From the NCBI GenBank assembly GCA_963847185.1, contig CAWJYV010000008.1, positions 96,001 to 160,000 of the forward strand: a stretch of 64,000 bases of DNA, in the 5' to 3' direction. The DNA comes from an uncultured Methanosarcinaceae archaeon. GTDB lineage: Archaea; Halobacteriota; Methanosarcinia; Methanosarcinales; Methanosarcinaceae. This document shows, piece by piece, positions 53,211 to 58,155 of this stretch (position 1 is its first letter; each line of letters begins with the position of its first letter). Both the position numbers and the translations under genes were made by a program. The notes beneath the pieces were generated by a model. It had not been told where the DNA came from. It ran no database searches and saw only the letters and a list, made by a program, of their open reading frames with translations.

Positions 53211-55611
53211 ACCTTTTTCACTCCACTTATTTCAATCTCCTTTTCACTCTCTCTGGCATTCTTTTCCTTCTTCTGTTGAATACTGCTCTTCTATTTCTTC
53301 TCCAAATTCCTTTTCAGCTTCTTCCCAGCCCCCTTCAAGTTTGTCTTCTATTCCTCCTACTCCTTCTTCTACTTCCTCTTCTACACCGAAGTTTCATATT
53401 CACTGCCTTCAGGCTCGATTCTCTGGCCTTTTCTTTCAGGCTTCTGGCTCTTTAAATCCGATTCTCCAGGGGGGACCATCATGGCAATCAGGTCAGGAGA
53501 AGCTATTTGTTTTACGAAACGAGGATCTCCGAGTTCATCAGAGTAAATTCTGTATATTTTCTTTGAAATGTCGTTCTGGTTGAAAGCGCCAGGCCCTAAT
53601 TCCAGGATGTAATCCCCGTGTTTCCGGACAGCAGAAGCAGGCCCGCCTATTACCCTGGTCTCACCTTTAAGTTCAAGCCCGACTGCAATTCCAAGAGGCA
53701 CATCCTTGAAGTAATTGCGATCTCCTCTTATGATGAAGGCTCCTTTCTTTACGTATTCTCCAGACTCGGGAGTCTTTGTCACCTGCTCGGCCTTAACCCA
53801 GTAGCAGTCTCCACTGAAATGTCCGGCTTTCCAGAGGCTGGAATAAGATACTGCAAACTGCGCAACTTCCTGGAGAGTAGATTCGGGAACCTCTTCTCCT
53901 CCGGTCTTGACAACAGTCAGGGGAGCTCCTGGAGTCTGGGTATGGAAGACAATATCTCTTTTTTCCATATATTTTTTGAAAACTTCCTCATTAGTATCGG
54001 CATCTCTGCCTCCTACAACAAGGAAACCATCTGAAGATACAAACCACCTGAACCTGTCATACCAGTGCTTTTTCCTGGAAGCCTGCAGTTTTCTTCCTGC
54101 TTTTGCAGCCTTTGCTGCAGCCTTTTTCTCCACAGCTTTTTTTGTATCCTCGATAGCCCTGATAGCTCCATCTTTCTTCTTGGTGAACTTCTTAACTTTC
54201 TCGTAATATTCCTGAGCGTTCTGAGGCACTGTCTTCCGGATATCGAGATTAGCGCTCTTTCCATCCAGATCCACAGTTACGGTCCCTGTTTTCTGGTCAA
54301 TGTTTGTGATCTTTTGAGCTGCAGGTGCGGTTTTTTTGGCCTGTTTCAGGATAGATCGGATCTCGTCCCAGGAATACCCTTTCGCTCTTGCGCCGTTGAG
54401 TACGGAAAAAAGCTCTTCTATAAGCTGGTAATTGGCATAAATTATTTCTGCAAGGGTATTATTTTTCTCAATTTCCTTCTCGAATTTTTTAAGGCTCTCT
54501 TCCTGCTGAAGAAGCCTTCTTTCGAAAACGCCAAGGGTTTTTTCCTTTTTTTCAGCCGCTTTTACCTCTGCAACCTGTTCCAGAGCCTTTTTTCCGAAAA
54601 ACTCGTCAAGTGCCGTATTAAAGGAGTCAAAATACTCTTTTTCGTATTCTGAATAACGAATAAGATCAAAAGGCAGTACATCGAAAGTTTCCAGCTTTCC
54701 GTTAATTTCTTTTTTGACGTGCTGGGGCTTTAATTTCGGAGCTTCAGCTTCAGCCCCAGTTTCTGGTTTTAATTTCAATTCAGCTTCAATTCCAGCTTCC
54801 AGTTTCAGTTTCAGTTTCAATCTCAGTCTGCGGTTTAATTCCGGATTTTGATTCTATTTCACCCTCTATCTTTTCTTCAGCCTCGACGGTAGTTCTTCCG
54901 GCTAAATAGAGGGAAAAATAGATCCTGCATTGCACTGCAGAGCTTTGAGGCATCTTCCTCAGATACTTCCTTTGCGGGCTTTGATTTCTCGATTCCTGCC
55001 CTGGCACAGACTTCTTCTGCCAGAACTCCTCCAAGATTGAACCTTGTGGCAATTGTCCGGACAACATCAGCCGTAGATTTCGACAAAGCCTCCATAAGAT
55101 CCGAAACTTTAGCACTTATCGGACTCAACTGCGCTTCAGGCAGTTCGTAAATTTCCCCGCTCCTGAGCCGGCGGTCCTTCAGAGTCACAGGATTCATAGG
55201 CAGAATGATTTTGTTTTCAGTATCAACGATAAGCACGTTCCCCCGAGCAAAAAGCTCAACAATAAGAGTGTTTCTGACCCCTGCTCTCTCAATCCCTATT
55301 TTTACAACCCTGTCAAAATCGTGCTGCTCAAAAGAAACAATCCTGCCTCCCGTCAGGTATTTTCTAAGCAGCATTGGAAAAGCCTGAGGAAGTTCAGGAC
55401 TTGCCCTGAAGTGTTTACTTAAATGGATGCGCTTCCCGGCTTCAATAACCAGGTTGTCCCTTCCCTGGTGAAAAACGTAAAGATTGATGCGGATCTCCTC
55501 ACTTGTAGTCTGGTAAATCTTCCCTACCTTCGCATCAATAATGGACTTCGGCCCAGCTGACAGCTCGGCAACAACTGCAGCAACGTCGGCACTTGACATA
55601 TCCTGTTTCAT
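53207..55611 (-). pseudogene. rqcH: Ribosome quality-control factor RqcH (NFACT), split by frameshifts as sequenced
   Basis: N-half 55611-54877 (MKQDMSSAD, FDR, ELF..GN); C-half from about 54800 (NAQ.YY, W..RFRWF.SSDG, GGRDA..NE, PESGEY..KGAF); about four indels in Glu-rich linkers; restored tail ends in an ATGA overlap with pelota. Confidence 0.8.
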
Positions 55612-55680
55612 AAAGTGGATATAAGAGAGGCTTTTCGTATAAGTGTTACTGTTGAATTTTTTTAGAGTAAGGTCATACCT

Positions 55681-55810
55681 CCATAGCTGAGCCACCCGAA
55701 TTGCGATTCGGGATCGCAGGAAATCCAAGATTTCCTGGGAGTTGCACTGTAAGTGCAACAGTCCGCTGTCCTTTTCACTCGCTGCGCTCGCTCAAGCAGA
55801 CTAATTTATG
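55681..55810 (-). repeat. Third copy of the structured intergenic repeat
   Basis: Reverse complement reads CATAAATTAGTCTGCTTGAGCG...GTGAAAAGGAC...GTTGCACTTACAGTGCAAC..CAGGAAATC/GATTTCCTG..CCCGAAT-CGCA-ATTCGGG. Confidence 0.8.
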
Positions 55811-55949
55811 GCGGCAATTATTGAGGAAACTTTGAACACGATTAAGGAGAAAAGAAAAAAGATCGAACCGAAGCATCTGGAAACTCCATCTTTAATCTGT
55901 TTTACCTCCGCATTTTCGTTGCGGCTTTTTCGCAGGGATAGAAAAAAGT

Positions 55950-56552
55950 TTAGAGTTCCCTCAAGAGGCGAAAGCCTAAGCAGTCATTGCAGTTTTTGGG
56001 GCCGACTCTGTCGCGAGACGCTGAACGGCAATCTCTAGCACTGCGGATCCAGCTACCGCCCCGATATACTGGATACGAGTCGCCTCCGTCTTCCCAGACA
56101 CTATCATCTGAAGGAGAACCATTGTAGTTCTCATGCCATTCGTCCTGAACCCATTCCCAGACATTCCCATACATATCATAAAGACCCCAGGAGTTGGGTT
56201 TCTTCTGGCCAACTGAATGAGTTTCAGAACCTGAATTTTCATCATACCATGCGTAATTATTAAGCTTTGAGTCATCTTCACCAAAGGAATACCTGTGTTT
56301 GTGTACCAGCTCTACAGGCATATTCCCATTCAGCTTCTGACGGTAAACGATATTTATCGGTGCCTTCCTTTTCATTCAGTTTTTTAACAAATTCTTGAAT
56401 CATCATTCCCACGAAACACATTCTACAGGCCGATCTTCACCCTTGAAATTAGATGGATTATTTCCCATAATCGTTTCCCACTGTTTTTGAGTACCGGATA
56501 TTTACCCATGTAAAAAGAGTTTTGAATTGTTACTTTATGAGCTGGGAGTTCG
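55950..56552 (-). pseudogene. FGE-sulfatase (CLec-fold) C-terminal domain of the caspase gene, frameshifted
   Basis: Fragments [64 protein letters not shown] and GFRL lie in alternating frames. Confidence 0.8.
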
Positions 56553-57689
56553 TTAGATATAACTATCCTTCTCTTCCAGAGGTGAGCCCATCATGAATTT
56601 TCCGGCTGGGATAAGTATGAATTCAATACCTGTAGAAGGATAGGTGAAAGTTTTGGAGGTTTTTTCATCTTTGAAGATTTTTGAAACATCTAGGTTTCTA
56701 AACCTTGCCAGAATATGTGAATCTTCAATTTCTTCATTTTCCAGGTAGCATTGAACTGTGTGAATATATGTTTTAACACTAATTTTGCCTTCCAGAAGAT
56801 CCTCCAGAGAAGTTCTTATTTCCTCGTCGGTTTCAGTTAGTTCCTCTGATTTTTCATAGGCATCAACAAGGACAATCATAGAGATATCGTAAATAGAGGC
56901 TGGAAGTTCCTTTCGGATATTTTTAACCAATTTGTTTTTCTTTCTTATGAACTCTTTTTCTTTAACTTTTAAGGGGTTCTTTGCAATGAGAAGTTTTCCT
57001 TCGATCTGAGTTTTCATAACTGGAGATTGAGAACTCCTTTTTATTGTTCTGCTGCGGGCATATTCGTACAAATCATTTACGTATATGAGGCCATCTTCGT
57101 CTTCATCTGCACTGCCATCTTCCAGACCTTCCAGCAAGTATTTAGTAAAAACGCCGTGTTTGAGTTCTGTATCCTCTTTGGCTTTCGGTGACCCAATCAG
57201 ACCCGTAGACGTTAGAATAACCGTACCTGAGCCAGAGGAGTAATTAGAAAGTGTTTCTTCTAAATCGTCTCCTTTTATTCCGGCAGCACCACTATAGCAG
57301 CAATCGAGCACAATAATTACTGACTTAAGTGACGGATATGTCATGCATCTGTTGATGTAGTCAAAGTTAAGTGAAGTTGCAAGAGGATAATCTTCTTTAG
57401 TATCCCTGAATAGCAGGCGAAGTCCGTTATCTAAATGCTTTTTACCGTGACCGGAAAAATAGATCAAAATAAGATCGTCACGATTTGCATTTTTCAGCAA
57501 TTTTTCTATTTTGATTCTTGCATCTAAAAAGGTTTCATCTATTGATTCTTCAACCTCATCAAACCCGCAAATATCTTTATTCAGGAGGACCTCTTTCATT
57601 GCGAGAGCATCAGCTACAGCAAATTTCAGTTCTTTATCCGAGCTCGGATAATTATTTCCAATAACAAGCCCTACTTTTTTGCCAGTCAT
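56553..57689 (-). CDS. Caspase-like (peptidase C14) protein, N-terminal part of a caspase-FGE fusion
   Basis: GLVIGNNY, LKFAVADA, YFSGHG (His), LDCCYSG (Cys), HGVFT; ends in the FGE-domain start IEFILIPAGKFMMGS. Confidence 0.88.
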   Translation of the reverse strand: MTGKKVGLVIGNNYPSSDKELKFAVADALAMKEVLLNKDICGFDEVEESIDETFLDARIKIEKLLKNANRDDLILIYFSGHGKKHLDNGLRLLFRDTKEDYPLATSLNFDYINRCMTYPSLKSVIIVLDCCYSGAAGIKGDDLEETLSNYSSGSGTVILTSTGLIGSPKAKEDTELKHGVFTKYLLEGLEDGSADEDEDGLIYVNDLYEYARSRTIKRSSQSPVMKTQIEGKLLIAKNPLKVKEKEFIRKKNKLVKNIRKELPASIYDISMIVLVDAYEKSEELTETDEEIRTSLEDLLEGKISVKTYIHTVQCYLENEEIEDSHILARFRNLDVSKIFKDEKTSKTFTYPSTGIEFILIPAGKFMMGSPLEEKDSYI

Positions 57690-57729: not shown

Positions 57730-58155
57730 TCACTCTTCTGAACTCATGAAACAATTAAGACCTTGACAGACTGATAGTTGCGGGTTTTCTTCAAAAAACT
57801 TAGATAACTTTTCAAGTGGCAGTTTTGAAATTTTAATCACGACTCCGTCAGGGCATTTCAGCTCGATTTCAGCAGTTGGCCTGTACTCAAGCCACGTTTT
57901 CATTGCTTCAAGAATTATGGCGAAAATTTTTCCTGTTATACCGTAAGCTGCAAGCGTACTGAAAAGATGTATTAAATCGACCTTTTCTCCTTCAAGACCC
58001 TTAAGCTCTAAAGGTTCTATCCAGCCATCAGGCATACTCTTGCAAATTGAGCAATATAACTGACAGCACTGCTCTTGCCAGTACTCAGAAGAATCTTCAA
58101 CGCCTTCGGATTTCAGTATGATAGAGAAATTAGACGTATCAAGAACTTGCTGCAC
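57730..58155 (-). CDS. EACC1-like (effector-associated constant component) small protein
   Basis: G..GEK turn, hydrophobic hairpin, then I.EA.KTWL..RP...IEL..PDG..I.I pattern; directly upstream of the caspase gene. Confidence 0.6.
   Translation of the reverse strand: MQQVLDTSNFSIILKSEGVEDSSEYWQEQCCQLYCSICKSMPDGWIEPLELKGLEGEKVDLIHLFSTLAAYGITGKIFAIILEAMKTWLEYRPTAEIELKCPDGVVIKISKLPLEKLSKFFEENPQLSVCQGLNCFMSSEE

Follow-up and report, generated by a model that had tools for sequence, protein, structure and literature searches.

The locus described here lies on the minus strand of the window, by which we mean the whole stretch of 64,000 nucleotides that was analysed, from an uncultured Methanosarcinaceae archaeon. 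It carries a gene introduced in the preliminary description as a caspase-FGE gene whose 3' end resembles the target of a diversity-generating retroelement (DGR). The following features were assigned in window coordinates.

57730..58155, minus strand: upstream ORF of 141 aa with no family match, a possible partner gene; it is conserved beside the intact ortholog of the sister species G042 (142 aa there).
55950..57689, minus strand: gene for an orthocaspase (Peptidase_C14) with an FGE-sulfatase/C-type-lectin domain, read as a pseudogene here from Pfam, a three-frame read and the alignment to an intact ortholog.
56553..57689, minus strand: N-terminal ORF of 378 aa that is still open and holds the caspase domain, a helical linker and the first FGE residues; it ends at a TAA derived from an insertion.
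56295..56583, minus strand: zone of four frame-breaking lesions relative to the G042 ortholog (MAFFT pair alignment and three-frame read).
55950..56375, minus strand: remnant C-terminal ORF of 141 aa, FGE-sulfatase profile positions 152-255 (Pfam).
55959..56063, minus strand: probable relic variable region (VR) of 35 codons, colinear with the template repeat of the congeneric genome G017; the 11 columns that are AAY in this template are all NNY here.
55942..55947, minus strand: T6 tract two bases past the stop, a likely archaeal termination signal, conserved in the flank of the G042 ortholog.
55908..55924, minus strand: hairpin CCGCA-N7-TGCGG, which looks like a weakened copy of the 7-bp stem in the syntenic flanks of G042 and G024.

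The identity of the gene as a fusion of Peptidase_C14 and FGE-sulfatase was confirmed with Pfam. The caspase profile matches residues 5-227 of the 378-aa ORF (E 2e-13), and the FGE-sulfatase profile matches the 141-aa C-terminal ORF with positions 152-255 of 255 (E 1.6e-24). The 378-aa ORF contains a GHG and a DCC..SG stretch, which we take to be the caspase catalytic dyad (His, Cys). With 113.8 bits the caspase stays below the cut-off of 140 for the NCBIfam model 'caspase, EACC1-associated type'. The last position of the FGE-sulfatase profile (255/255) falls three residues ahead of the stop codon, a TAA at 55952-55950 on the minus strand, which places the VR at the 3' end of the domain. Among solved structures, the intact ortholog matches PvdO best (E 3.5e-34) and the DGR variable protein TvpA (2y3c) second (E 2.1e-32), and true FGEs score far weaker than TvpA (about E 4e-15). 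Judged by these scores, the FGE domain of the window gene is of the TvpA kind. Oligo-T tracts terminate transcription in archaea, and the T6 tract at 55942-55947 is likely such a signal. No partner gene of the vWA, MoxR or STAND type was found beside the caspase-FGE gene. Its sole neighbour is the 141-aa ORF upstream, for which no match was obtained in Pfam, NCBIfam (E<=10) or PADLOC.

Overlooked in the preliminary description was that the gene is not intact; the reading frame is broken four times from 56583 to 56295. The closest relative, the sister Methanosarcina species G042, has an intact caspase-FGE ORF of 564 aa (L083, 3261-4955), with which the window gene aligns along its length; a single ORF across caspase and FGE is present there and absent from the window gene. 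The first lesion consists of insertions of 6 nt (56583-56578) and 10 nt (56565-56556), a net gain of 16 nt, followed by an in-frame TAA at 56555-56553. The second is a loss of 1 nt between 56493 and 56492, the third a gain of 2 nt at 56405-56404 and the fourth a gain of 1 nt at 56295. In the three-frame read the FGE domain runs through three frames, so that the two ORFs are pieces of one gene. The syntenic ortholog in G016 has independently been cut down to a 3' fragment with an in-frame stop. On the strength of this alignment the caspase-FGE gene is a pseudogene in this genome, and the hypervariable sensor fused to a caspase that had been proposed for the locus is not to be expected in this organism.

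The codons of the presumed variable segment are present on the minus strand with exactly the letters quoted in the preliminary description, and the segment comprises 35 codons from CGG to AGG at 56063-55959. A BLASTN search with the gene against 41 relatives gave two matches in contig C2 of the congeneric genome G017. One of them is an FGE gene. The other is a separate match of 104 nt to exactly window positions 56063-55960 (71%, E 4.5e-7), which adjoins an RVT_1 match. On a single strand, this locus (L049) carries a KAP_NTPase gene, a target of 480 aa with an FGE domain, an HRDC gene (E 1.5e-20), bAvd (E 6.2e-18), an RVT_1 reverse transcriptase (RT) and a non-coding template of 124 nt. In the RT the YMDD box is present, together with one in-frame TAG. 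The template differs from its own VR by 25 mismatches and one 3-nt gap; 24 of the mismatches are located at template adenines (A>G 15, A>T 5, A>C 4) and the remaining one is C>G. By the usual criterion this locus is a genuine DGR. It had been stated beforehand that the lack of a template repeat and a DGR RT in this and related genomes would speak against a DGR origin, and one related genome, G017, has both.

Matches to the G017 RT at E<=1e-10 were obtained in 19 of the 59 species genomes of the genus, and only G017 and G068 stand out. The G068 RT was considered as a source and rejected; it belongs to a real DGR of another kind, unrelated to the window gene, which adjoins an integrase and pairs a single template with two VRs located outside FGE genes. 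The three matches that rank next, two places in G056 and one in G008, proved to be maturases of group II introns (TIGR04416 at 310-330 bits, cut-off 300), and the RT of G042 is of the retron type. Among the matches classified, a matching DGR that targets an FGE gene is kept in only 1 of 59 species genomes (G017). Outside the genus, the nearest relatives of the G017 RT are bacterial, the best being 57% identical and found in a Synergistia MAG. In the accessible literature linking DGRs and Methanosarcina no description of a Methanosarcina DGR was found, and the supplementary tables of large surveys may list such elements; in Roux et al. 2021 (PMC8144416), no word starting with 'Methano' occurs in the main text as far as accessible.

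Read in frame from the RGG motif up to where the homology stops, the G017 template comprises 35 codons, of which 11 are AAY. The window segment has equal length and aligns to it with no gap over the 35 codons. At the template-AAY columns the window codon is NNY in 11 of 11 cases, and the residue is the same in 21 of the 24 other (scaffold) columns. Mismatches at codon positions 1, 2 and 3 amount to 7, 6 and 4 of 11 at the AAY columns, compared with 3, 2 and 9 of 24 at the scaffold columns. For positions 1 and 2 together this gives 13/22 against 5/48 (Fisher p = 4e-5). This distribution of mismatches is the reverse of the one that normal divergence leaves. The scaffold itself diverges from the G017 template in an ordinary and mostly synonymous way. 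Counted per nucleotide, 14 of 28 template-A sites differ, as do 17 of 77 non-A sites; since so many non-A sites differ, the G017 template is heterologous to the window VR and not cognate. The remark that most non-scaffold codons of the segment end in C or T was reproduced, with 11/11 at the AAY columns against a C/T fraction of 0.529 at third positions of the genome (binomial p = 9e-4). Residues with two-fold degenerate codons (Y, C, N, D, F, H) force NNY by the residue itself, and only 3 of the 11 codons at the AAY columns of the window are four-fold degenerate. With so few four-fold codons in a single VR, the strongest codon test rests on the gene family and not on the window.

Relatives of the 141-aa C-terminal ORF were found in 54 of the 59 genomes of the genus at E<=1e-15. 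Homologues were sampled from 40 of the best-scoring places and from those in five loci, and tblastn yielded 47 matches that reach the C-terminus. Five of these were dropped: two lack an RGG-type motif (a G016 fragment and a gene with an in-frame TAG), and three are not colinear, with 37 or 39 codons in place of 38, including the VR of G017 itself. Judged by C-terminal signature, 13 of the 42 sequences kept are 'long' genes, which are multi-domain and include the window gene, and the other 29 are 'short' genes of about 280 aa. All these sequences are related, and the counts given for them are descriptive, not independent trials.

At the 11 AAY columns, NNY codons account for 136/143 cells in the long class and 310/319 in the short class (95-97%). 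At interior scaffold columns the corresponding counts are 100/169 and 228/377, and in upstream FGE codons the NNY fraction is 0.62 and 0.58. The residues K, E, Q, M and W occupy 5/143 (long) and 3/319 (short) cells at the AAY columns, and 13/169 and 77/377 at interior scaffold columns. The cleanest test is provided by four-fold degenerate codons, as the residue does not force the third base there. Such codons end in C or T at the AAY columns in 42/43 cases of the long class (32 with C) and 93/97 of the short class (73 with C). In the upstream FGE part the values are 272/396 for the long class, with T over C, and 521/870 for the short class, mostly T overall. A third FGE class with the same segment length, represented by 20 genes from 20 genomes, served as control and remained at background level (NNY 135/220, 61%; four-fold codons ending in C/T 36/73). 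Comparison with the 3' ends of paralogous FGE genes had been suggested as a check on the DGR reading and was carried out; the paralog in the same genome has NNY in just 7/11 columns, against the 95-97% of the classes with the footprint. As would be looked for in a relic or orphan target, the window segment is homologous to a DGR target family which carries the footprint, and the control family is without it. The mean entropy at the AAY columns is 2.67 bits in the long class and 0.90 bits in the short class, and at the other columns 0.71 and 0.68 bits. The short class combines low entropy with the footprint, so the footprint may be very old and silent on the recent history of a gene.

The window had been described as having no RT or template, which is correct and extends to the whole genome (G000; 4,039,532 bases in 10 contigs, 99.83% complete by markers). 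An RVT_1 search of this genome gave 0 matches, with a positive control in 3 of 14 genomes, and a homolog of the G017 RT is absent at E<=1. The bAvd profile PF22296 also gave 0 matches, a weak blank given that the control was positive in just 1 of 14 genomes and below the cut-off. The proposed BLASTN search of the segment against its own genome (191-nt query) returned itself and 9 chance matches of 14-17 nt, with no second copy. An ungapped scan of both strands for a template repeat that forgives mismatches at template adenines detected only A-rich low-complexity places, the best non-self place having 19 non-A mismatches of 126. The VR as an IUPAC pattern with N at the variable positions had 0 matches in genome_contigs and viral_contigs; this pattern requires exact scaffold identity, and a diverged template would escape it. 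Apart from the window gene, the only FGE-sulfatase locus in the genome is the paralog of 241 aa on contig C4.

The state of the VR was assessed by comparison with orthologs. The G042 ortholog departs from the window at a single AAY column (of 11) and a single scaffold column (of 24), and the upstream FGE DNA is 85% identical. Judged by these few differences, conservation of the VR is no lower than in the remainder of the gene. In all other colinear homologues 9-11 of the 11 AAY columns are unlike those of the window, and this includes the caspase-FGE genes of G022 and G023, whose caspase DNA is 83-84% identical to that of the window. A second template-like copy was searched for in G042 as well, and none was found. 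A second VR-like copy in G016 was considered as a possible template and rejected; it belongs to a long-class gene of which a 3' fragment is left, contains an in-frame stop, has a VR of its own that differs, and is followed directly by the same flank. From this comparison we conclude that the VR is frozen and not diversifying. Of the two possibilities raised in the preliminary description, that of a remote target which is currently served is not supported: RT, Avd and template are missing from a genome that is 99.83% complete, and the nearest species has a nearly identical VR (1 of 11 variable columns differs).

The hairpin was located where the preliminary description had placed it, with CCGCA at 55924-55920, a loop of 7 nt and TGCGG at 55912-55908, beginning 25 nt past the stop. 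Its use as a sign of a DGR was not supported. The fold of the 61-nt flank has a z value of -0.52, and 58 of 200 shuffled sequences are at least as stable. Eight syntenic sequences share a consensus of 5 pairs (-3.9 kcal/mol) with one-sided changes and some broken pairs, and 0 pairs were kept through changes on both sides. An Rfam family at E<=1 was not detected within 55600-56100. At the same place G042 has a GC-rich stem of 7 bp with a 3-nt loop and a second hairpin ahead of it, in a flank that is more stable than shuffled sequences (z -2.0, 7 of 200), and judging by this likeness the window hairpin looks like a decayed version of the G042 stem. The hairpin may be part of the FGE 3' end or of the intergenic region upstream of the NFACT gene; it follows an FGE gene of either class in all 8 aligned syntenic loci and is missing from G009, which has no FGE neighbour at this place. 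An inverted repeat a short way downstream of the variable segment is also present in the Mtd target site of Bordetella phage BPP-1 (IMH and hairpin/cruciform; Guo et al. 2011, PMC3240598). According to the accessible part of that paper, DGR cruciforms share a GC-rich stem of 7-10 bp and a GRNA loop of 4 nt, at a distance of 4-34 bp from the VR. In the window the stem measures 5 bp and the loop 7 nt, and the hairpin stands about 35 nt beyond the point where the template homology stops. In the G017 DGR target, the first 90 nt of the 3' flank contain no perfect stem of 5 bp or more. The hairpin is no evidence for a DGR, being no more stable than expected by chance, no fit to the cruciform consensus and devoid of pairs kept through changes on both sides.

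The other possibility raised in the preliminary description, that of a former DGR target, is supported: the segment is colinear with a genuine congeneric template, all 11 codons are NNY, 21/24 scaffold residues are kept and the footprint is found across the family. What characterises an active DGR target (template, RT, Avd, a hairpin of the cruciform type, ongoing variation) was not found, and what would be left in a relic (position, fold, footprint, family) was found. From the observed anatomy, the absence of machinery, the template colinearity, the codon footprint of the family, the frozen state of the VR and the broken state of the gene, the last 35 codons of the pseudogenised orthocaspase-FGE gene are probably the fossil of a DGR variable region. 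We infer that retrohoming made this particular VR, and the step stays an inference because its cognate template was found nowhere and the G017 template is heterologous. In an ancestor or donor lineage, a template repeat with the same scaffold and about 11 Asn (AAY) codons would have been transcribed, and the DGR RT would have copied it with adenine errors. The cDNA would then have replaced the 3' end of the FGE/C-type-lectin domain, by which AAY codons on the ligand-binding face would have been rewritten to NNY. By analogy with caspase-FGS conflict proteins, the N-terminal orthocaspase would be the output module of the sensor, and the intact protein would couple ligand sensing to a protease. 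Later the retroelement would have been lost and the VR have frozen, before the gene decayed here through the four frame-breaking indels, so that nothing would be diversified now.

An ordinary FGE C-terminus without DGR history would have to be explained by point mutation and selection at ligand-contact positions, with the template being merely a copy of a gene 3' end. Such a history fits a genome without template, RT and Avd and a VR that is stable between the two closest species, and it is in line with a heterologous template that differs at 17/77 non-A sites; binding-site residues such as Y, N, D, S and C use NNY codons anyway. It does not account for the four-fold codons, which end in C or T in 42/43 and 93/97 cases at the 11 columns and prefer C, when the same genes prefer T elsewhere. 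Nor does it account for an FGE class of equal length at background in both codon counts (135/220 and 36/73), or for the scarcity of K, E, Q, M and W at the AAY columns (5/143 and 3/319) relative to the scaffold (13/169 and 77/377). We consider this explanation unlikely. A G017-type template could nevertheless descend from a gene end whose variable positions already varied.

The two remaining alternatives retain a living gene, either intact or still diversified, and each has to deal with the four breaks of the frame. If these were errors of assembly or sequencing, the gene would be intact in the organism, which we regard as very improbable. The pseudogene call does rest on one assembly; four public sequencing runs (shares of 0.05-0.07 of the sampled words, no RNA run among them) are without coverage of 55900-56082, and none of the public runs found covers the lesion region. 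The neighbouring NFACT gene is split as well, by two frame changes in an acidic repeat, giving six frame changes within about 1.7 kb. However, 0 of the 4 lesions is located inside a homopolymer run and one is a net insertion of 16 nt of unrelated sequence. In addition, other genes of the window are unbroken (the primase of 414 aa and ORFs of 350 and 271 aa), and the independent decay of the G016 ortholog implies that decay of this gene recurs in the genus. That the VR is a live remote target, still rewritten by a DGR that sits on a plasmid, on a virus or in genome sequence missing from the assembly, seems to us hardly credible. The assembly is in 10 contigs, and remote targets are known for other DGRs according to the accessible parts of PMC7517822 and 10.1101/2023.09.22.558884. 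Against this possibility stand a completeness of 99.83% with no RVT_1, bAvd or template, the 0 matches of the VR pattern in genome_contigs and viral_contigs and a gene broken four times, as well as the sister species G042, which keeps nearly the same VR and whose only RT is the retron-type one (NF038233, 258.5 bits against a cut-off of 235).

A fossil variable region can be compared with several described systems. TvpA of Treponema denticola (2y3c) and the window gene share an FGE-sulfatase-type domain that has its variable segment at the very C-terminal end, and in both cases NNY codons stand where the template has AAY. The window differs in that its genome is without RT, Avd and template, its VR is frozen and its gene is broken. 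TvpA has a lipoprotein context, and the window gene has an N-terminal caspase instead. The DGR of G017 belongs to the same genus. The FGE domain of its target shares 63% protein identity with the C-terminal ORF of the window, and its template is colinear with the window VR. The G017 target has a KAP_NTPase neighbour and no caspase, whereas the window gene has an N-terminal caspase, and the 3' flanks are unlike.

In cyanobacteria, DGR variable proteins and paralogs with an N-terminal orthocaspase and a C-terminal CLec/FGE domain have been described (Vallota-Eastman et al. 2020, PMC7517822, accessible part). The paralog all3226 of Nostoc PCC 7120 has remnant TR-VR homology and no RT (PMC7517822). 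The window gene shares with these orthocaspase-CLec proteins the architecture and, as in the copies described there, the retention of a VR footprint after loss of diversification components. It differs in its archaeal host (Methanosarcina), in that no template is left and in being a pseudogene. The accessible part of the same paper recognises remote targets by a VR identity of 50% or more to a DGR in the genome concerned, which is impossible here, as the genome is without a DGR. A further parallel is given by FGS-domain effectors of NTPase-centred conflict systems, in which FGS/FGE is always C-terminal to a variable N-terminal module, caspases included (Kaur, Burroughs, Iyer, Aravind 2020, PMC7159879). 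According to the accessible text, they are frequently linked to DGRs, and the few archaeal cases are in Methanosarcina mazei. The G017 DGR target resembles them in adjoining a KAP_NTPase gene, but the window gene differs from them in having no vWA, MoxR or STAND partner nearby. Contexts with KAP NTPases and peptidases were added in a preprint (10.1101/2023.09.22.558884, accessible part).

For the annotation of this genome, the result means that the locus is a dead gene and not an active hypervariable sensor. The part worth following is the codon footprint of FGE genes across the genus, in which 1 of 59 species genomes still has the retroelement. We tentatively propose, as a reading about as open to doubt as to belief, that the two Methanosarcina FGE classes (42 colinear genes, stand-alone in the 'short' class and fused to caspase or NTPase in the 'long' class) record a past burst or repeated rounds of retroelement-driven diversification of putative sensors, after which variants became fixed, the element disappeared and gene decay followed, one lineage at a time. 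Bacteria may have supplied the retroelement, a possibility suggested by the G017 RT, whose nearest relatives are bacterial. DPANN lineages hold most of the known archaeal DGRs, and Methanosarcina is an aggregate-forming methanogen outside DPANN. If the proposal is true, there was a burst of diversification in a non-DPANN archaeal genus. DGR targets without a retroelement are seldom recognised, because standard detection needs an RT and a template. The codon footprint (NNY/NNC at fixed columns, with the four-fold test against a control paralog class) can identify such fossils, and in Methanosarcina it points to past targeted hypermutation of caspase- and NTPase-linked lectin sensors.

In the window, the NFACT-type gene that adjoins the caspase-FGE gene is split by two frame changes into two open reading frames of 293 and 479 aa. 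Both frame changes fall within an acidic, Glu-rich repeat. The same gene is a single 805-aa open reading frame in the sister species G042 and one of at least 716 aa in the genus genome G016. The features in the immediate neighborhood of the caspase-FGE gene are:

Window 54786-55250, minus strand: break region of the NFACT-type gene
Window 55780-55811: short dispersed repeat, about 32 nt
Window 57730-58155 and L083 4973-5401 (G042): conserved 141/142-aa open reading frame, directly upstream of the caspase-FGE gene

The short repeat has 19 matches in the source genome and many in most Methanosarcina genomes; it may be a MITE- or REP-like element. The interval between the NFACT-type and primase genes is an island in flux. 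In G016 (contig C20, L050 2304-3735) it contains a short FGE gene, a gene of 186 aa and the 3' fragment of a long-class (multi-domain) FGE gene, together with duplicated fragments of the primase gene 5' end, which are 71-85% identical. The short-class (stand-alone) FGE gene is altogether absent from the window.

Reverse-transcriptase loci in the genus and the conserved long-class flank are located as follows:

L049 495-1541 (G017 contig C2): reverse transcriptase (RT) of the FGE-targeting DGR
L049 2442-2565 and the 3' flanks of L112, L116, L085, L100, L105, L107, L051, L099 and L095: conserved 3' flank
L123 6276-13538 (G068 contig C31): second DGR of the genus, adjoining an integrase
L155 1334-3058 (G042 contig C111): retron St85-family RT, 574 aa

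In the RT of the G017 DGR, a single in-frame TAG separates the N-terminal part from the palm domain, and the terminal codon is also TAG. Since Methanosarcina is a pyrrolysine-decoding genus, the in-frame TAG could be read through; or else the RT may be dying. Against its own template, the G017 variable region has, in addition, an indel of 3 nt and a single mismatch that is not at an A. The G068 DGR is unrelated to that of G017 and probably proviral. It consists of a 373-aa RT, one 117-nt template and two variable regions, which lie at the C-termini of a 129-aa and a 227-aa protein. The retron assignment in G042 is based on a score of 258.5 bits (cut-off 235), and RVT_1 open reading frames of about 570-580 aa resembling this RT were found in G004 and G009.

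Ten FGE genes of the long class, taken from different species, have a conserved 3' flank in common with the G017 DGR target; the RT is present in G017 only. In this flank, repeats of the CCACTTT/ACTTTACC motif precede a GC-rich CGAAG-repeat element, and the flank may be a cis element or a scar left by a mobile element. The product of the 141/142-aa open reading frame, which gave no match in Pfam, NCBIfam or PADLOC, is possibly a partner or adaptor protein.
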